Shown: positions 1,462 to 48,201 of the stretch, one piece after another
Layout of the letters: each line of letters opens with the position of its first letter
How positions within the stretch are numbered: the stretch's first letter is position 1
Source: a virus
Lineage: Duplodnaviria; Heunggongvirae; Uroviricota; Caudoviricetes
Virus record (IMG/VR): IMGVR_UViG_3300042259_000065
Strand: one strand, 5' to 3'
DNA length: 64,000 nucleotides
Translations under genes and position numbers: made by a program
Notes under the pieces: generated by a model
Seen by the model: the letters and a program-made list of their open reading frames with translations, nothing else
The model's database searches: none
Told to the model about the DNA's origin: nothing

Positions 1462-1919
1462 AATTTTCTCCTTAGTTTAAATATATGTGAGTATACTCTT
1501 ATCGAGAGCATATTCTATTTTCACACAATATTATATTAACTTCAAATGTAATATTTTATCGTGACGATAGAAATTATTTGTCATCATTAACAAGGATTTT
1601 GATATCCTTTGGACATTCGAATACAGTGTCACCAATAACTAGCTGCCAACCTTCAGTATTGTATGGAGAAAATGAAAGAGTATCAGTATCTTTTTCATTC
1701 AAACACCAACCATCTTGTTCAAAGTAATCAATAATTTCATCTTTGTTCATTATTTACCACCTCTTAAACAAATACCAACACAAGCAGTATCTGAAAATTT
1801 ATAATAGTAATGGGTTAGATACTTAATGTTACTTGTAACATCTTTCTCATAAACATCCCACTCTTTTCGTGTGCAACATACAAGTGTATCATTATTTTCA
1901 ATAGCTTTCTGTAATCGTT

Positions 1920-2150
1920 CTAACATAAATCCTCCACATTAATCTTAAACTCTTTATTCCCCAAAGATAAAACATTCACCTTTAAATTGTCAAGCTGTTT
2001 CTCAGCAAGAATTTCTTCTATATCCGAAATAGCACCTTGTCGAGTAAGAAGTCCTTGTTCAGAGAGTTCAACTAAGTGCAGAAGGATTTCATCTTTTAAG
2101 GATTGATATTTATCTGTAACAGGTGTGTTTTTGGAAGGTTTCTTTTTCAT
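1920..2150 (-). CDS. Hypothetical protein
   Basis: 76-aa ORF whose stop overlaps the downstream gene start. Confidence 0.4.
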   Translation of the reverse strand: MKKKPSKNTPVTDKYQSLKDEILLHLVELSEQGLLTRQGAISDIEEILAEKQLDNLKVNVLSLGNKEFKINVEDLC

Positions 2151-2497
2151 AGTGATTGACTCGTTTTAGATAAGGTTTGTGTACAAACTTTATGAATACT
2201 CTTTACAGGAAGGTCTATATACTTCAAGTAATAATCTTTAATGTCAGACTTATCCTTTACAGAAAGAGTTTGACTTTCCACCAAACTTTTAACCTTCTGT
2301 GAGAATAGGTGTTGTTCATAAACCTTACCTTGCACACGATAGAAACTCTCACAAACTAATAGTGTTGAAATATATTGAAGCTTATTCTGATGTTCAACTT
2401 CCATTGTGAGGTGATCTTTGTGCACAGGAGTGTTGATTGTTGAAACACAACCTGTTAACAACAACCCTGTTAAGATAAGTAAACTTTTCATAATCAA
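2147..2497 (-). CDS. Putative lipoprotein
   Basis: N-terminus MIMKSLLILTGLLLTGC has a signal peptide followed by a lipobox LTGC. Confidence 0.5.
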   Translation of the reverse strand: MIMKSLLILTGLLLTGCVSTINTPVHKDHLTMEVEHQNKLQYISTLLVCESFYRVQGKVYEQHLFSQKVKSLVESQTLSVKDKSDIKDYYLKYIDLPVKSIHKVCTQTLSKTSQSL

Positions 2498-16543: not shown

Positions 16544-17911
16544 TCAAGAATATTTTGCAATAAAACTTGTACAATCTCCGTGATAGTTACCCTCTGAATC
16601 AAACACCTGTGGAACAGTCTTAAGGCCTTTGCCAAGAAGATATTCTTTGTGTTCTGGATTACTAACAACATCTTTCTGTACATAGTCAACACCTTTACTA
16701 CCGAGAAAATCTTTAAGTTTAGTACAGAAGGGACAATCTGGTTTTGTATAGATGGTGAGATTATGTAAATCACTAAGCTCATACTTAACCAAGACTTCCC
16801 CATCACCCATGTCAAAAATATCCAAATCTGAGAAATCTATATTCTCTGCTTCTCTGCTCACTGAACTAACCATATAGTTAGTGGCATCTGACTCCATATT
16901 AGCATTTTGCTGGCTATTCAAATCCATCCAATCAGTCTCAAACCAAGGCAAAGGACAAGTAACTGTTTTACGGAAGGGTTGGTCGAATTCGAGATTATCA
17001 TATACATCTTGAGCACAGTATCGTGTCCAGTCATTTAAGATCCCTTCGTTCAAACCAACCAAAGAACGTCCACTACTGAACAAATACTTGTTCCAACTTA
17101 ACTCTTGTTTAACCACACCAGATACAATATCCGTCAGTTCTTGTTTATAATCTTCAAAAATATAATCAAAGTCTTTTGACTCTTTTAAAATACTAAGTGC
17201 GTACCTCTGAGTCTCAAAATGAATCATCTCATCAATAAGAATTTTCTGAACTAACCGTGCCATACCAACAAAATATTCCTGTTCTGCTAGTGCAAACGTA
17301 CAAGCGAAACTAGACATAAAACTAATGCGTTCTAAAGCATAAATTGCAACTAAACCTTTAATAACATAGGGTTTAGCTTCTTCACTTGTAATTAAACCTA
17401 ATGTATACTTCGCACCAACCTCTTTTAAATCCGCTAAAGCTTTACTGACAACTGAACTACGTTCAAGGACTTGTTCATGCTTAAACACCATATCAAAAAT
17501 TTCTTGAGGATCTGGTACACACTGCCTAACAATATTAGAATAAGTAACGGAATGTAGATTCTCATTCTCACCAATACGTGCAATCACATGACCATATTCA
17601 CTATTTGTAACAAAAGGTGCTAGTAATGTTGGAATACTTGTTGCAATGGAATCTAAACTCCATTGGTAAGCCAAATTAAATAAACTAAGGTTACGGGTGT
17701 TTATATCACAACGTAGTAAATCCATACGGGTTTGCGTTAAGTCTACATCATTCTCAGACCAATCTAATTGCTTAAGCTTTTCCATTAGCTCATAGAAATA
17801 AGGGTATGGTTGGTTAATACTATCATATAAACTTGGCTCTTGTCCAAAGAAGATTGGATAATCCCCTGTTTTATGGGCAGTACTTTTCTGGTTAAAAACT
17901 GTAATTGTCAA
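16544..17911 (-). CDS. nrdB: Ribonucleotide reductase small subunit (R2) fused to a C-terminal glutaredoxin domain
   Basis: Ferritin-like R2 blocks (ALERISFMSSFACTF; LIDEMIHFE). The last ~85 aa carry CPFC...TVPQVF glutaredoxin motifs. The internal ORF 16498..16815 is judged spurious. Confidence 0.8.
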   Translation of the reverse strand: MTITVFNQKSTAHKTGDYPIFFGQEPSLYDSINQPYPYFYELMEKLKQLDWSENDVDLTQTRMDLLRCDINTRNLSLFNLAYQWSLDSIATSIPTLLAPFVTNSEYGHVIARIGENENLHSVTYSNIVRQCVPDPQEIFDMVFKHEQVLERSSVVSKALADLKEVGAKYTLGLITSEEAKPYVIKGLVAIYALERISFMSSFACTFALAEQEYFVGMARLVQKILIDEMIHFETQRYALSILKESKDFDYIFEDYKQELTDIVSGVVKQELSWNKYLFSSGRSLVGLNEGILNDWTRYCAQDVYDNLEFDQPFRKTVTCPLPWFETDWMDLNSQQNANMESDATNYMVSSVSREAENIDFSDLDIFDMGDGEVLVKYELSDLHNLTIYTKPDCPFCTKLKDFLGSKGVDYVQKDVVSNPEHKEYLLGKGLKTVPQVFDSEGNYHGDCTSFIAKYS

Positions 17912-17956: not shown

Positions 17957-20900
17957 TCATAAACTACAACCACCACTTGCGCAACCAACGTCTTGTACAG
18001 TCTCAATTTTTTGGTGCTTGGAATCTTTACCTGAATTAGTTTTACTATTCACATAATACCGAGTCTTCATACCCATCATATTCATATACATCCAATCTTT
18101 AAGTAAATCCTCCCCTGAGATCTTTTCCTTAGTAAAATCTAAGTAAATATCGGCAGAGATTGATTGGTCTGTGAAAGCTTGTATTGCTGCATAAACATCA
18201 ATTAGATCTTTAGTTTTGATGTCCCAAGCTAGCTCGTAGTAATCTCCGTGGGTATCTACATTAGGTGCCAAGAAACGTGTTTTCTTATTACCATTAGTTT
18301 TTACAACTTTTAATGCTCTAGCAGGTAAAATGCTATTTGTACCATTGGTTGCAATAGAACTAGACTCATTAGGCATAAAGTTTACCATAACACTGTTACG
18401 TACCCCAAACGTTTTAACCTCACTCCTCAAAGTTTCCCAGTCTTGCGTTAAAGGTTGTTTTATAACTTTAAAAACATTCTTGTTCATTGTGTCTATAGGT
18501 AGCCAACCATCTTTCCATTTGGTTTTATGAATCCACTCACATTCTCCACGTTCTTTTGCTAAACGCACACTAGCTTTTATCATTGAATATGAATGTAACT
18601 CTGCCAGTCGGTGAATAAATTGTTTACCTTCTAAACTAGAATACTTCATTTTCTTAACAGCCATTAGCCCTGCAAGATCTGTAATACCTACACCTATATT
18701 ACGACGAGCTTTAGCTGTTGTTTCTAAGGATGGAAAAGGATAATCCATAATATCCATCACATTGTCGATTGACAGTGCTGCATAATAACATACATCCTCC
18801 CATTCGGATTCAGCAACTCTTCTCGCAACTATAGCTGAAAGGCTACACAAGCCTATCTCTGGAATACTACCATCTGAATTGACTGGATTACTTTGATAAA
18901 GCTGTTCTACTGAATCATAACCAACTGTTGGGAACGCGGTTTCCTGACAATTACCTGTTAGAATACCATTAAACATCCCCATCCCACGTTTAGGTTCTGT
19001 AAAACAATACGTATCATCTACACGACCCTCATCAACAACAGAGGATACTTTAACAAACTGTTTAGCATCTCTTTGAGGAAGACGTTTTACTACTTGCATA
19101 CGATTTAGGTATTCTCCTAAACCTAAACACATTAACCGATATACATCATAACTGGTTACTAATAACCTCCAAGATTCTCGACACCAGAAATCCCCATTTT
19201 CACCAGAACCATCATTAAGTGGTAACTTCCGGTAACCTTCTTCCATCATAGGAGTAATCTTAGCAGAGACACCCAGTGTCTGCAACATGTATTGAACTTC
19301 TTTAAGGAAGTTTAATTCTACACTACTACCTACGAGTTGTTGGTTTGTGCCGTTTCTATACACACAACCATCACCATCTAACCAACCGGCAAACCACTTC
19401 AATTTTGACTCAATATCATAATCTTCAGATGGTACGAAAAATTTATCTTTAAGTCCGTCCATTCTACCGATTTCACGGTTTTGTTTATCATCAACAGTAT
19501 GTGTTCGTAAATTAAAGAGTTTTGTTAACTTACGTTTTTCATGGTAGAAATATAAGACTTTCTGACCACCACTCTCACATCCATCCGCAGTAAAGAATCC
19601 GTTTTCATAAGCATTTAGAAGTGTCTTGGCACCATCTAAAACGGGAAGGTCAAACTTAGCTAATTTATCACCTACAGACAATTCATGCGTTCTTTTTACT
19701 GTATAAGGCTTACCGTACCCATCGAATACATACCATTTATGGTAAGGTGTACATTCAAGCTCCTGACCAGATGAAGTTGTTACTTTGAGTAGTTTTTGAT
19801 TTACTCCTGTTTTAACAACCGTAGTCTCTGAGAACTCTTCACCATTCCATACGTTAACAACCTCACCTTCCATTTCTGCTATAGGTATATAGCCGTTGCT
19901 TGTTAAAATCTGAGTTTCAGGGGCAACACAAAGATTTGAGCTATAAATCTTATCTTTATGAGGGGTATGATAATTCATCTCATAAGTATTATGCAGATAA
20001 ACCTGACCACTCTCTTGACCTTGTACTAGAGCTTCAATAGCTAGTTTCTGTGCATTAACAAATTCTTTCTTAACAGGAGCATTAAGGTAGAATTTATAAA
20101 GGTTTTCGAACTTCTCTTGATCTGCTTCATACAGAGCTTCGTGTAAGTCTGGTGCATCTTTATAACTAATAAGCATCCAAGGTTCATTAAGGTACACCTT
20201 CTTTGCAAAAAGTCGATTACTGCCGAAAGAATAGTGAATACCATCCACACGTACCTTAGATGCAGTCTTCTTATTCTTCCATGTAAGGATATCCATAATC
20301 TCAGGGTCAAGGCAGGTTACATGCATAGTAGCAGAACCACCACGACTATTTTGCAAATTTGCAGCGACAGCACTTTGTGTCATAACATAGTAAGGACGTT
20401 TCCCTTGATGGATAGTAGTTCCGCCACGAACCTCATCACCTTTACTACGTGTTTTAATATGTGCCCCAATACCAGCGGATGCACATGTCAACATGTACGC
20501 AATATGATCTCCTGCAGCTAGACTCTTTGCTGTATCATGTGTTGTAAAGGTTGCACAAGATGCATACCCGCGATTTGGTGTACGTAATTGTGTCATAAAT
20601 GGGGTAGGTGCACAGATTTTCTTATCACTGAGGTATGTGTAATACTTTACTACATCATTGATACGACGTTCTTTTGGCATGGTTTTCATATTAGCCATCG
20701 CCATCCCCATATACATGAACTGTGGTGATTCCAGTGAGCGTTGTTCTACACGATTACGAATTACATACTTATCATTAATTTGCTTAATCTCTGGGTAGGA
20801 ATATGTCAGGTCTTTATTATGGTCAATAACACCTTCCAGCAACTTAAATTCATCCTCAGAATAATCTAGTTTTTCCCAGTAACCTTTTGCTACCATGTTA

Positions 20901-21208
20901 TCATGATGCTGTTTTAACGTAGGGATATTTTTAAAACCACCAAAAGCTTCCTTATAAATAACCCCTGCAAGAACTCGTCCAGCCAACATGAAATGTTTTT
21001 CGTCAAACTCTTCTACACAAGCGTCAATAATTGCTTTATCAATAGAACCTGTTGAACATTTATCTGAGAGAAGTTTAAGAGCTTTTAGTGAAATTGTTGA
21101 CCAGTTTACCTTCCTATCTGCTGCCCATCGCATTTTCTTATTGAATTTATTTGGGTCAAAAGGTTCTTCTCGACCATCTGCTTTAATAACAGTTTTAATA
21201 GCTGTCAA
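17957..21208 (-). CDS. nrdA: Ribonucleotide reductase large subunit (class I alpha) interrupted by an intein
   Basis: ATP-cone N-terminus (VIKADGREEPFDPNKF). The active-site region SNL|C..QETAF is split by a 327-aa intein. The ORF is 1083 aa; a normal alpha subunit is ~750 aa. Confidence 0.9.
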   Translation of the reverse strand: MTAIKTVIKADGREEPFDPNKFNKKMRWAADRKVNWSTISLKALKLLSDKCSTGSIDKAIIDACVEEFDEKHFMLAGRVLAGVIYKEAFGGFKNIPTLKQHHDNMVAKGYWEKLDYSEDEFKLLEGVIDHNKDLTYSYPEIKQINDKYVIRNRVEQRSLESPQFMYMGMAMANMKTMPKERRINDVVKYYTYLSDKKICAPTPFMTQLRTPNRGYASCATFTTHDTAKSLAAGDHIAYMLTCASAGIGAHIKTRSKGDEVRGGTTIHQGKRPYYVMTQSAVAANLQNSRGGSATMHVTCLDPEIMDILTWKNKKTASKVRVDGIHYSFGSNRLFAKKVYLNEPWMLISYKDAPDLHEALYEADQEKFENLYKFYLNAPVKKEFVNAQKLAIEALVQGQESGQVYLHNTYEMNYHTPHKDKIYSSNLCVAPETQILTSNGYIPIAEMEGEVVNVWNGEEFSETTVVKTGVNQKLLKVTTSSGQELECTPYHKWYVFDGYGKPYTVKRTHELSVGDKLAKFDLPVLDGAKTLLNAYENGFFTADGCESGGQKVLYFYHEKRKLTKLFNLRTHTVDDKQNREIGRMDGLKDKFFVPSEDYDIESKLKWFAGWLDGDGCVYRNGTNQQLVGSSVELNFLKEVQYMLQTLGVSAKITPMMEEGYRKLPLNDGSGENGDFWCRESWRLLVTSYDVYRLMCLGLGEYLNRMQVVKRLPQRDAKQFVKVSSVVDEGRVDDTYCFTEPKRGMGMFNGILTGNCQETAFPTVGYDSVEQLYQSNPVNSDGSIPEIGLCSLSAIVARRVAESEWEDVCYYAALSIDNVMDIMDYPFPSLETTAKARRNIGVGITDLAGLMAVKKMKYSSLEGKQFIHRLAELHSYSMIKASVRLAKERGECEWIHKTKWKDGWLPIDTMNKNVFKVIKQPLTQDWETLRSEVKTFGVRNSVMVNFMPNESSSIATNGTNSILPARALKVVKTNGNKKTRFLAPNVDTHGDYYELAWDIKTKDLIDVYAAIQAFTDQSISADIYLDFTKEKISGEDLLKDWMYMNMMGMKTRYYVNSKTNSGKDSKHQKIETVQDVGCASGGCSL
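18950..19930 (-). mobile_element. Intein (LAGLIDADG homing-endonuclease type) inside nrdA, aa 427-753
   Basis: Begins CVAPETQILTSNGYIPIAEM (block A). Contains WFAGWLDGDGCV and a second LAGLIDADG-like helix. Ends GMFNGILTGN, followed by the +1 Cys, which is the RNR catalytic cysteine. Confidence 0.7.
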
Positions 21209-21960
21209 CTCACTTTCTCCTTATTTGTTATAATATAATTGATTTCATCTATAGTTATACTTCTAACACCTGCTGTGTAAGAAGCCTCTTTGCATATTAA
21301 ATCTTGGTATTTTTCTATAAGGTTTAAATCCCCTTTCACGTAAAGACTACTTGATGCAGTAAACTCATCTAAACTAATGACTTTACCTGCCCTTCCACCA
21401 ACACGTCTAATTGTGAAATCATAATCCTCTGGATTACCTTTTTCAAGATATTTATTAAACTTTAAAACTTCTCTATGTTTACGAACCCATATTTGAAATA
21501 CACAAGGGACATTGTAAACCACTCCATTAAGAATGAAGCTATTATCAGGTAAATCCACCTCTAAAGCAACAGATAAATTATGGGAAACTTTCTCTTGGAA
21601 CAATACCTTCTTAAAAGTTTTTGGTAAGATAAACGCAATAACAGTAGCCCCATATTTTTCCGAGTGGTTAATAAATTTTAGAGCTAAAGAACTTGCAAAA
21701 CCAAAAGGTGGATTTCCTACTACAATTTTGTTCTCAAGATCATATATATCAAAAAAATCAGATTTTACTACGCTTTCGTGTTTAGGCTCAAGATCGTAAG
21801 CTTCCCATGTCAGGCTATTATCCAAGAACGCTCCACACCCTGCACTGGGTTCTACGAAAGTATAATCTGTCTTACCTAGATAATTTGTTAGTAGTGATAA
21901 GCAATATTGAGCAACCTCTGGGCGCGTATAGTATTGATCGAGAGAATTCTTTTTACTCAT
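21205..21960 (-). CDS. DNA methyltransferase, gamma-class; paralog of 10875..11687
   Basis: YYTRPEVA, EPSAGCGAF, GNPPFG. Confidence 0.7.
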   Translation of the reverse strand: MSKKNSLDQYYTRPEVAQYCLSLLTNYLGKTDYTFVEPSAGCGAFLDNSLTWEAYDLEPKHESVVKSDFFDIYDLENKIVVGNPPFGFASSLALKFINHSEKYGATVIAFILPKTFKKVLFQEKVSHNLSVALEVDLPDNSFILNGVVYNVPCVFQIWVRKHREVLKFNKYLEKGNPEDYDFTIRRVGGRAGKVISLDEFTASSSLYVKGDLNLIEKYQDLICKEASYTAGVRSITIDEINYIITNKEKVS

Positions 21961-47812: not shown

Positions 47813-47887
47813 GCAGGTGTGATGTAATGGAGAGCATATTTCTCTTCTAAAGAAATCGTCAGCGTTCGAATCGCTGCACCTGTACCA
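47813..47887 (+). tRNA. tRNA-Arg (anticodon TCT) with encoded CCA
   Basis: Hand-folded cloverleaf. The acceptor pairs gcaggtg with cacctgt (G-U first pair), the D-loop has GG, the anticodon stem pairs tttct with agaaa, the loop is cTTCTaa, and the T-arm is cagcg TTCGAAT cgctg. A discriminator A and CCA follow. Confidence 0.7.
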
Positions 47888-48126: not shown

Positions 48127-48201
48127 GGGTATGTAGCTCAGAGGCAGAGCAATTGGCTGTTAACCAATAGGTCGAGATTTCGAAATTCTCCATATCCGCC
48201 A
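48127..48201 (+). tRNA. tRNA-Asn (anticodon GTT) with encoded CCA
   Basis: The acceptor pairs gggtatg with catatcc, the D-arm is gctc agaggca gagc, the anticodon stem pairs attgg with ccaat, and the loop is cTGTTaa. The T-loop is TTCGAAA, with one T-T mismatch in the T-stem. A discriminator G and CCA follow. Confidence 0.65.

Follow-up and report, generated by a model that had tools for sequence, protein, structure and literature searches.

Why is nrdA, the gene for the large subunit of a phage ribonucleotide reductase (RNR), about 330 codons too long, and is the insert responsible, which ends in Gly-Asn instead of the usual His-Asn, a regular or a damaged intein? The gene lies in the window, that is, the whole 64,000-nucleotide stretch of viral DNA analyzed here, for which a sequence-only reading had proposed an intein at the catalytic cysteine of NrdA. 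We followed up this proposal by sequence, profile and structure comparisons.

The insert and its host protein

The nrdA open reading frame (17957..21208, on the minus strand, as are all features below) starts with TTG and encodes a 1083-residue precursor of class Ia RNR alpha, with a predicted mass of 122.9 kDa. The precursor matches the Pfam families Ribonuc_red_lgC (2.3e-86), Ribonuc_red_lgN (1.3e-11) and ATP-cone (1.2e-4), so that the ATP-cone, all-alpha and barrel domains of class Ia NrdA are all found in the host protein. The insert comprises 327 residues (precursor residues 427-753, 37.2 kDa) and occupies 18950..19930, exactly the coordinates given by the sequence-only reading. Both the DNA and the translation confirm that it starts with Cys and ends with Thr-Gly-Asn, followed by another Cys. 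With slashes marking the junctions, the precursor reads ...IYSSNL / CVAPETQILTSNGY ... GMFNGILTGN / CQETAF. The N-extein (residues 1-426, 19931..21208), delimited by alignment to E. coli NrdA, ends with ...KDKIYSSNL, and the C-extein (residues 754-1083 plus stop, 17957..18949), delimited by alignment and DNA, begins with the tgt codon of the catalytic Cys at 18947..18949.

Removal of the insert on paper leaves a 756-residue NrdA of a predicted 85.7 kDa with the junction peptide ...IYSSNLCQETAFPTVGY..., and the joined exteins give the empty-site DNA ...AGCTCAAATCTT/TGTCAGGAAACCGCG.... The alignment to intein-free NrdA that had been suggested as a check restores a contiguous RNR, in which residues 7-755 align to residues 7-760 of E. 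coli NrdA (E = 2.5e-121). The SNLCQE segment falls on S436-N437-L438-C439-L440-E441 of the E. coli enzyme, and thus the +1 residue occupies the position of the thiyl-radical Cys439, as previously claimed. In E. coli numbering, the spliced protein keeps C225, N437, C439, E441, C462, Y730, Y731 and the C754/C759 pair. The junction agrees with that of Vibrio phage F100, whose intein-less nrdA has exteins of 78-81% identity and reads ...SSNLCQETAFP... after intron removal. An Rfam scan of the whole window found two tRNAs and no intron; therefore, the nrdA of the window has an intein only. On this sequence evidence, the insert is an intein with a predicted homing endonuclease, set just before the catalytic Cys of a phage NrdA, and the 1083-residue product should be annotated as an intein-containing NrdA precursor.

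The GC content of the intein is no different from that of the exteins, and an exact-sequence look-up of the 1083-residue precursor gave no match. Located 45 nt downstream of nrdA, nrdB (16544..17911) encodes RNR beta (Ribonuc_red_sm, 5e-32) fused to a C-terminal glutaredoxin domain, which was detected by domain search at residues 386-437 (Glutaredoxin, 4e-14).

Anatomy and fold of the intein

The intein consists of an N-terminal splicing region, a central endonuclease domain and a C-terminal splicing region. The N-terminal region (intein residues 1-105, 19616..19930), defined by TIGR01445 and family conservation, contains block A CVAPETQILTSNG (19892..19930) and block B LECTPYHKWYV (19727..19759), the latter with Thr61 at B:7, His64 at B:10, Lys65 at B:11 and Trp66 at B:12. 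The LAGLIDADG homing endonuclease domain (about residues 106-285, 19076..19615) was delimited by Pfam, the helices of the structural model and Foldseek. Its two motifs, LLNAYENGFFTADGC (residues 104-118, 19577..19621) and KLKWFAGWLDGDGCV (residues 176-190, 19361..19405), both retain the catalytic acidic residue, in TADG and DGDG, respectively. The C-terminal region (residues 286-327, 18950..19075), placed by family profile alignment, harbors block F VDDTYCFTEPKRGMGMF (18971..19021), with Cys309 at F:4 (19004..19006) and Gly316 at F:13 (18983..18985), and block G NGILTGN (18950..18970), with Thr325 at G:5, Gly326 at G:6 and Asn327 at G:7. The penultimate Gly, correctly called earlier, is encoded by ggt at 18953..18955.

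Profile and structure searches support this organization. The LAGLIDADG motifs reported by the sequence-only reading are matched by Pfam LAGLIDADG_3 at 41.3 bits (cut-off 22.5), and the NCBIfam model intein_Nterm (TIGR01445) scores 43.9 bits (cut-off 24.5), with a match that begins exactly at Cys1. Pfam Intein_splicing stays below its cut-off (26.6 vs 35.8 bits), and the N-terminal model is the sole intein splicing model in the NCBIfam table for the insert, both of which fit a non-canonical C-terminus. The intein was modeled by AF2 with a pLDDT of 92.2 and a pTM of 0.90, showing helices at both LAGLIDADG motifs. Foldseek matched the model best to the TliVMA intein (PDB 7qsu, 2.6e-15), PI-SceI (1ef0) and PI-PfuI (1dq3), with further matches to mini-intein structures and to the endonucleases I-DmoI and I-Tsp061I. 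The insert thus has the HINT fold and, judged by its motifs, Pfam match, helices and structural matches, a two-motif single-chain LAGLIDADG endonuclease with the alpha-beta-beta-alpha-beta-beta-alpha fold. When PDB chains were searched by phmmer with the single intein sequence, the matches were only marginal (E = 0.018 and 0.13), and a mini-intein profile performed better.

At the level of single residues, the intein has the class 1 features Cys1, Thr61 and His64 (TPYH) and an Asn327 followed by a +1 Cys. It departs from typical class 1 inteins at three positions: Gly326 replaces His G:6, and Cys309 and Gly316 align to the canonical Asp F:4 and His F:13, respectively, of the Pho CDC21-1 intein in the profile alignment. 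The His residues at F:13 and G:6 are thought to catalyze Asn cyclization. Beyond the penultimate Gly, we also note three traits that the sequence-only reading missed, namely the family-invariant Cys at F:4, Gly at F:13 and the alternation of Asn and Gln at the last residue within the family.

A family at the thiyl-cysteine site of RNRs

Homologues of the insert alone were found by tblastn in 320 phage records, with E down to 2e-144, which puts it far beyond chance; matches with E-values from 2e-144 to 9e-132 span 100% of the intein query. Of 1.84 billion metagenomic cluster representatives searched, 535 match at E<=1e-30, a number that rises to 1367 with a threshold of E<=1e-10. All 16 lineages examined (16/16) have the junction SNL/C...[NQ]/C.E. 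The literature names the site before the thiyl-radical Cys as the one most often occupied by inteins in RNRs. Accordingly, the intein of the window is, by sequence, a mostly ordinary new member of a large, already described ICP1-type family.

Residue conservation was counted on 140-142 family representatives, no two of which exceed 50% identity. All 142 have Cys1, Thr B:7 and His B:10 (each 142/142), and Cys F:4 and the +1 Cys are found in 140/140. That neither the class 1 nucleophiles nor the TxxH motif vary implies selection for splicing. B:11 is Lys or Arg in 131/142 representatives, B:12 is Trp in 42 and Phe in 100, and G:5 is Thr in 126/140, with the full Trp-Cys-Thr triplet in 41/140 and Phe-Cys-Thr in most others. 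F:13 is more variable (His 70, Asn 45 and Gly 22 of 140), and the last residue is Asn in 61 and Gln in 79 of the 140. In a mini-intein alignment, at least 90% of the sequences keep Cys B:6, which corresponds to Cys60 in the copy of the window. The flanking extein residues are likewise constrained, with Asn at -2 in 139/142, Leu at -1 in 132/142 and Glu at +3 in 138/140.

The penultimate position is Gly in 130, Ser in 4, Met in 3, Leu in 3 and His in none of the 140 representatives. His G:6 is equally missing (0/108) from an earlier family set with the same conservation pattern. On these counts, a Gly-Asn or Gly-Gln ending is the rule in the thiyl-Cys-site RNR intein family. Since His is found in neither set, Gly G:6 is a conserved trait of the family, presumably compensated, rather than damage to this copy. 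The sequence-only reading had considered it a rarer variant, which holds for inteins in general, of which about 5% of the functional ones have no His G:6 (PMC4031507), but not within its own family. The family also includes many natural mini-inteins of 131-149 residues, all with Cys F:4 and without a penultimate His, and with Asn and Gln as interchangeable ends.

Besides phages, the RNR of Marseillevirus LCMAC101 matches the family at 41% identity with a TM of 0.88, extending it to eukaryotic giant viruses.

Comparison with known inteins and introns

The closest sequences are the NrdA inteins of Pseudoalteromonas phage PH357 and Vibrio phage VnaP, both with the same site and architecture. The former is 71% identical, but ends in Gly-Gln and keeps His F:13, whereas the intein of the window has Gly-Asn and Gly F:13. 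The VnaP intein, of 68% identity, resembles that of the window in its Gly-Asn end, Trp B:12 and lack of His F:13. The NrdA intein of ICP1 (ORF203 / gp203, HQ641347), described in 2011 (PMC3037004) and 2023 (PMC10448857), is a 328-residue LAGLIDADG intein at the same site SNL/C.../CQE and is 65% identical. They share Cys F:4, Gly F:13 (KRGMGMFNG) and Gly G:6, but differ in the last residue (Gln in ICP1, Asn in the window) and at B:12 (Phe and Trp, respectively).

The NrdA exteins of ICP1 are 44-49% identical to those of the window, compared with 65% for the intein, and the VnaP exteins are 78-85% identical, compared with 68% for the intein; the N-exteins of VnaP and F100 are both 78% identical to that of the window. 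Such incongruent intein and extein identities support horizontal mobility. With the whole nrdA as query, megablast against the phage collection matched only the N-extein, over ~1 kb at 75-76% identity, and gave no DNA match to the intein; the collection thus contains no near-identical copy, and sequenced phages include no recent donor.

The same spot is used by an unrelated type of element. In the nrdA of Vibrio phages F100 and 184E37.3a, which is 78-81% identical, a group I intron splits the catalytic Cys codon behind its first base (T/GT), one nucleotide from the intein site of the window. In contrast to the intein, this intron acts at the RNA level (Rfam RF00028, 86 bits), has no LAGLIDADG ORF and is removed before translation. 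The same nrdA codon hosts an intein in the phage of the window, while relatives of this phage have a group I intron there, making it a clear example of a hot spot of selfish elements. The split NrdA inteins of the "fractured genes" (Dassa et al. 2009, PMC2677866) also sit directly N-terminal to the thiyl-radical Cys, but they are encoded by two genes with a free-standing endonuclease in between, whereas the intein of the window lies within one ORF.

Other inteins with altered C-termini have also been described. The RIR1 intein of Chilo iridescent virus (CIV) is a viral intein of the RNR large subunit with a non-canonical C-terminus, and the Ssp DnaE and Ceu ClpP inteins are further examples without the penultimate His. 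The link of the CIV intein, cited in a review (PMC4031507), to the family is putative, and Gln is the commoner end in the family. Class 2 KlbA inteins, with Ser at G:6, splice without His G:6, but they belong to unrelated families in other host proteins (PMC4031507). According to that review, restoring the His helps some His-less inteins and harms others, and no His-less intein in it is reported with the combination of Gly G:6, Cys F:4 and an Asn/Gln alternation (PMC4031507).

Proposed splicing mechanism and mobility

What we observed is the anatomy and homology of the insert, the site it occupies and the way its residues are conserved, whereas splicing, residue roles and endonuclease activity are inferred. 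We propose that this standard-architecture intein of the thiyl-Cys-site RNR family splices by the class 1 route with a different catalytic set, a reading in which we have considerable confidence. It is favored because Cys1 and Thr-x-x-His are invariant, yet not proven, because Cys F:4, Trp66 and Thr325 reproduce the class 3 signature. In this process, Cys1 of the 123-kDa precursor, primed by the block B residues Thr61 and His64, would form the N-terminal thioester, and the N-extein would then pass to the +1 Cys, the future equivalent of catalytic Cys439. Cyclization of Asn327 would free the 37-kDa intein, and an S-to-N shift would yield an active NrdA of 86 kDa in which the NLCxE motif is whole again.

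The cyclization would have to proceed without the penultimate His and, in the copy of the window, also without His F:13; with both His absent, splicing might be slowed or depend on conditions. The family may have evolved an alternative catalytic set of Cys F:4, Gly G:6, Thr G:5 and Lys/Arg B:11. The basic B:11 may assist cyclization, as proposed for Arg B:11 in the Ssp DnaE intein (PMC4031507). A search of the accessible literature for a splicing assay of any close relative found none. The family offers a natural experiment on C-terminal cleavage without histidines. When phages co-infect a cell, the endonuclease probably cleaves nrdA alleles that have no intein, upon which the element would be copied in. 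Overall, the mechanistic interest of the intein in the window is modest and lies in the family more than in this copy.

A possible second role for Cys F:4 and other readings

The invariant Cys F:4 invites a different interpretation, namely that it is a second obligatory thiol, which would relay the thioester, form a branched intermediate at block F or else gate splicing by redox state, so that the family would bridge class 1 and class 3 inteins. We consider this unlikely; if true, the copy of the window, which lacks both catalytic His, would be an extreme example. The family at any rate allows one to test whether a class 3 signature and a class 1 nucleophile work together.

In its redox form, splicing would be gated by a reversible disulfide among Cys1, Cys60, Cys309 and the +1 Cys, which would keep NrdA an inactive precursor under oxidizing conditions until thiol reductants, for example the NrdB-fused glutaredoxin, undo the bond. 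Such a gate would be compatible with the class 1 explanation. It is suggested by the invariance of Cys F:4, the conservation of Cys B:6, the NrdB-glutaredoxin fusion encoded next door and the precedent of Msm DnaBi1, whose catalytic Cys F:4 enters an intramolecular disulfide that is inhibitory when H2O2 is present (PMC6195587). However, the argument is one of analogy, the ordinary role of RNR glutaredoxins is to reduce the enzyme itself, and a catalytic role would explain the conservation of Cys F:4 equally well. The gate is thus unlikely.

In its mechanistic form, Cys309 would be an obligatory nucleophile that attacks the N-terminal junction or hands the thioester of Cys1 on to the +1 Cys, a hybrid route that would place the family between classes 1 and 3 in its mechanism. 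Inteins of class 3, such as mycobacteriophage Bethlehem DnaB, Msm DnaBi1 and Mch DnaB1, share the Trp-Cys-Thr (WCT) signature at B:12/F:4/G:5 and the phage association, and their Cys F:4, a residue also found in the family of the window, lies between both junctions. The intein of the window has the literal triplet (Trp66, Cys309 and Thr325), with Cys F:4 in 140/140, Thr G:5 in 126/140 and Trp or Phe at B:12 in all family members counted. The three WCT inteins of InBase that have an N-terminal nucleophile were reportedly proved class 3 by Tori and Perler in 2011. These were the only three among 37 WCT inteins in InBase in 2009, and in the founder class 3 intein the W67F change left about half of splicing, with Cys F:4 absolutely required (PMC2807308). 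In class 3 structures, F:4 adjoins both splice junctions (PMC6195587).

Nevertheless, most comparisons point away from class 3. Class 3 inteins have no Cys1 or Ser1, generally lack Thr B:7, have Ser or Thr at +1 and keep the His-Asn end, whereas the family of the window has an invariant Cys1 and Thr B:7 (each 142/142), a +1 Cys and Gly G:6 (for the class 3 nucleophile and Thr B:7, see PMC6195587). Tested for class 3 membership, the intein of the window shows the triplet, but also an N-terminal nucleophile, Thr B:7, a +1 Cys instead of Ser/Thr and no sequence affinity to the class 3 clade. Indeed, the family profile found no natural class 3 intein among structures at E<=10, compared with more than 20 of class 1 or class 2. 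In addition, class 3 is considered a monophyletic group (PMC4031507), and a class 1 intein onto which WCT was grafted did not acquire class 3 splicing (PMC7664689). Altogether, an obligatory nucleophilic Cys309 appears improbable.

Compared with these readings, decay of the intein is very unlikely. Loss of both catalytic His would have left it splicing-defective and nrdA effectively a pseudogene, with the phage using the host RNR. However, all 3.25 kb of the ORF are intact, every catalytic residue of the exteins is kept and the remaining catalytic positions of the intein are all intact. Moreover, Gly G:6 is the family norm and Gly F:13 recurs in 22/140 representatives, including the ICP1 intein, which is full length in every ICP1 record among the tblastn matches listed and belongs to a lineage shed by patients across a 10-year period (PMC3037004). 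Both acidic residues of the LAGLIDADG motifs are also kept, in contrast to the distant Caulobacter phage copies, in which they are lost.

Finally, the boundaries of the ICP1 GenBank record, where the mat_peptide (L004 1507..2490) lies two codons past Cys1 and the Gln/Cys junction, so that the intein would start with APETQ... and end with ...GNCQ to give a product NLCV-ETAF that also fits NxCxE, are almost certainly wrong and were rejected, as they give Ala1 and Glu+1 and therefore no +1 nucleophile, the intein-less F100 reads NLCQETAFP and not NLCVETAF, in line with Cys1 and Asn/Cys, and the TIGR01445 match begins at Cys1. In other records, relatives of the intein are annotated as "hedgehog/hint domain protein" or "hypothetical protein", have no feature at all, or have boundaries off by two residues.

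An intein at the catalytic cysteine of NrdA

The nrdA precursor ORF (17957..21208, minus strand) encodes 1083 aa, in which all three domains of a class Ia ribonucleotide reductase (RNR) alpha subunit were matched by Pfam, the barrel-domain match being stretched by an insert to extend across residues 216-1053. The insert occupies aa 427-753 (18950..19930, minus strand), exactly the coordinates that a sequence-only reading had assigned to an intein, and has all the features claimed for it: it starts with Cys, contains two LAGLIDADG motifs, ends in Gly-Asn and is followed by Cys. The coding sequence is ...agc tca aat ctt / tgt gtt gcc cct... at the N-junction and ...aca ggt aat / tgt cag gaa acc... 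at the C-junction, and the protein junctions are therefore SSNL / CVAPETQ...GILTGN / CQETAF.

The check proposed in that reading, alignment of the exteins to intein-free NrdA, gave a contiguous match: residues 7-755 of the spliced 756-aa sequence align to residues 7-760 of E. coli NrdA (E = 2.5e-121), ungapped at the extein junction. Excision rebuilds the claimed motif, as SNLCQE falls on S436-N437-L438-C439-L440-E441, and thus the +1 Cys is the equivalent of the thiyl-radical Cys439. C225, C462, Y730/Y731 and the C-terminal pair C754/C759 (E. coli numbering) are conserved too, which predicts a complete NrdA enzyme after splicing. An independent check of the junction came from Vibrio phage F100, whose nrdA is the closest intein-less relative (exteins 78-81% identical) and, with its intron conceptually removed, reads ...KDKIYSSNLCQETAFPSVGY..., in agreement with the window. 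The original finding is real and its interpretation correct.

The F100 junction disagrees with, and thereby excludes, boundaries two residues downstream in the style of the GenBank record of Vibrio phage ICP1. There, both ends of the 'intein' mat_peptide (L004 1507..2490; HQ641347.1) lie two codons too far downstream (APETK...TGQCQ), an arrangement that would make Ala residue 1 and Glu the +1 residue. By alignment and by comparison with the intein-less allele, the intein really spans 1501..2484 (Cys1 ... Gln / Cys). Among other public records, the intein-containing nrdA region of Proteus phage PM135 (L011, NC_042090.1 54741..56348) carries no feature, and the intein-containing nrdA is named 'hedgehog/hint domain protein' in Vibrio phage 1.187.O (L016) and 'hypothetical protein' in Aeromonas phage PhAER-4 (L017).

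A histidine-poor, cysteine-rich catalytic set

Intein block positions were assigned by spacing and then confirmed by profile alignment to solved inteins, in which the family Cys aligns with the canonical Asp F:4 of the Pho CDC21-1 intein and a later position with its His F:13. Residues were counted in 140-142 family representatives, at most 50% identical to one another. Cys1, Thr B:7 and His B:10 are invariant (142/142 each), as are Cys F:4 and the +1 Cys (140/140 each). B:11 is Lys or Arg in 131 of 142, B:12 is Phe in 100 and Trp in 42, F:13 is mostly His (70), Asn (45) or Gly (22), and G:5 is Thr in 126/140. At the penultimate position G:6, Gly was found in 130 of the 140 representatives, Ser in 4, Met in 3, Leu in 3 and His in none, followed by Gln (79) or Asn (61) at G:7. 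The overall pattern was the same in an earlier, partly overlapping family set, with His at G:6 in 0/108.

The penultimate Gly had been called a rarer variant. This holds among inteins generally, His G:6 being missing from ~5% of functional inteins (PMC4031507), but not within the family, where the Gly-Asn ending is a fixed character rather than an oddity of the window copy. The window intein combines Cys1 / Trp / Cys / Gly(F:13) / Thr / Gly / Asn and has a His at neither F:13 nor G:6; the ICP1 intein likewise has Gly at F:13. The histidines at these two positions usually get the credit for catalysing Asn cyclisation. The novelty is modest and confined to this histidine-poor, cysteine-rich catalytic set of the family.

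Proposed splicing mechanism

Selection for splicing by the standard class 1 route best explains why Cys1, Thr B:7, His B:10, the cyclising residue (Asn or Gln) and the +1 Cys are kept by hundreds of divergent copies from different RNR subclasses. We propose that a thioester would form at Cys1 and be transferred onto the +1 Cys, followed by Asn cyclisation and an S-to-N shift. Cyclisation would be promoted without histidine, and a candidate promoter is the basic residue conserved at B:11 (Lys65 in the window intein), because Arg B:11 has been proposed as a helper of Asn cyclisation in Ssp DnaE, a His-less intein (PMC4031507). We speculate that the backbone freedom of Gly G:6 would permit cyclisation of either Asn or Gln. 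Asp F:4 normally couples the two splice junctions; an invariant Cys stands in its place, so that Cys F:4 presumably takes over the coordinating role. It seems rather unlikely that Cys F:4 serves as a second thiol that splicing cannot do without, whether as a relay or a redox gate, although a gate would find a comparison in the inhibitory disulfide of Cys F:4 in Msm DnaBi1 (PMC6195587).

Trp66, Cys309 and Thr325 of the window intein make up a literal Trp-Cys-Thr triplet, which defines class 3 inteins, with Cys F:4 as first nucleophile (PMC2807308; PMC4031507). The full triplet and Cys1 occur together in 41/140 representatives. However, Cys1 and Thr B:7 are invariant in the family, whereas class 3 inteins lack the N-terminal Cys1 and generally Thr B:7 (PMC6195587). 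The +1 Cys also argues against class 3, as does the penultimate Gly, since the class 3 inteins of PMC2807308 and PMC6195587 keep His-Asn. Moreover, the family profile matched >20 PDB inteins of class 1 or class 2, and no natural class 3 intein there at E<=10. When the triplet was transplanted into a class 1 intein, no class 3 activity arose (PMC7664689). On this comparative evidence, the window intein was filed as class 1-like.

Splicing and endonuclease domains

The NCBIfam intein N-terminal splicing model, its match starting at Cys1, and Pfam LAGLIDADG_3 both score above cut-off on the insert. Pfam Intein_splicing stays under its cut-off and the NCBIfam matches to the insert include no C-terminal splicing model, which fits a non-canonical C-terminus. 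An AlphaFold2 model built with 35 family sequences is confident (pLDDT 92.2, pTM 0.90), and Foldseek groups it with the endonuclease-containing inteins TliVMA (7qsu; 2.6e-15), PI-SceI, PI-PfuI and PhoVMA. Taken separately, its two parts resemble mini-inteins and free LAGLIDADG enzymes such as I-DmoI. An acidic residue is kept in each LAGLIDADG motif (TADG, DGDG), whereas distant Caulobacter phage copies have lost these residues. Cys60 (codon 19751..19753) sits directly ahead of the block B Thr in LECTPYH; at least 90% of the mini-intein alignment has Cys at this position, which brings the conserved thiols near the splicing centre to four.

Distribution and mobility of the family

The intein matched 320 phage records by tblastn, 307 of them with at least 80% query coverage, from phages of Vibrio, Rheinheimera, Caulobacter, Corynebacterium, Staphylococcus, Acinetobacter, Pectobacterium, Salmonella and other hosts. 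The top matches were Pseudoalteromonas phage PH357 (71%), Vibrio phages 1.187.O and VnaP (~68%) and ICP1 (64-65%), whose NrdA intein was annotated in 2011 (PMC3037004). Nothing in the phage collection exceeds 71% identity to the window intein, a new member of a known and abundant family that occupies the best-known intein site of RNRs. The junction SNL/C ... [NQ]/C.E is identical in 16/16 lineages compared. A phmmer scan of all 1.84 billion representatives found 535 proteins at E<=1e-30 and 1367 at E<=1e-10.

Of the 65 complete family copies in the first search, 30 were natural mini-inteins (131-149 aa), which could serve as compact test objects or protein-engineering tools. The metagenomic proteins P0054 and P0063-P0118 include such endonuclease-free copies, which retain Cys1, Cys F:4 and Gly-Asn or Gly-Gln. 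A member also resides in a Marseillevirus RNR (41% identity). Six metagenomic copies lie in NrdB (P0019, P0047, P0053, P0064, P0103, P0112; Pfam PF00268); they are 30-55% identical over the aligned part and end in Gly-Gln followed by Ser at +1 (...TGQ/SETYAL). With such clear relatives in the beta subunit, the family has therefore moved between both RNR subunits.

Compared with ICP1, the window intein is 65% identical and the exteins 44-49%; compared with VnaP, the values are 68% and 78-85%. Intein and extein histories thus disagree, the pattern expected from homing between phages. In the sister clade (Vibrio phages F100 and 184E37.3a), nrdA carries a group I intron instead (Rfam RF00028, 86 bits, E = 5.5e-22), inserted after base 1 of the same catalytic Cys codon (CTG T / ... 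G / GT CAA), 1 nt from the intein site. It lies at L001 5259..5507 in F100 (OZ195714.1) and at L019 4730..5007 in 184E37.3a (MW824372.1). One codon is occupied by an intron in one clade and by an intein in another. The F100 record treats the two exons as separate genes, and that of 184E37.3a annotates the intron.

Genome neighbourhood

The window is a portion of a lytic tailed-phage genome and encodes rIIA, DNA and RNA ligases, a portal protein, the large terminase subunit and a Dda-like helicase; the nearest relatives are 130-140-kb Vibrio phages. After a spacer of just 45 nt, nrdA is followed by an nrdB-glutaredoxin fusion (16544..17911, minus strand; C-terminal glutaredoxin with CPFC, aa 386-437). 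F100 encodes the same fusion (454 aa), but has an HNH endonuclease gene between nrdA and nrdB. The upstream ORF (21205..21960, minus strand) shares 4 nt with the start of nrdA (TTG); it weakly matches phage DNA methyltransferase families (phrog_799, 9e-11) and had no Pfam match. In relatives, a gene annotated as DNA methyltransferase lies a few genes ahead of nrdA, at a position similar but not identical to that of this ORF. Phage-encoded tRNA-Arg(TCT) and tRNA-Asn(GTT) genes lie ~240 nt apart on the plus strand (47813..47887 and 48127..48201).
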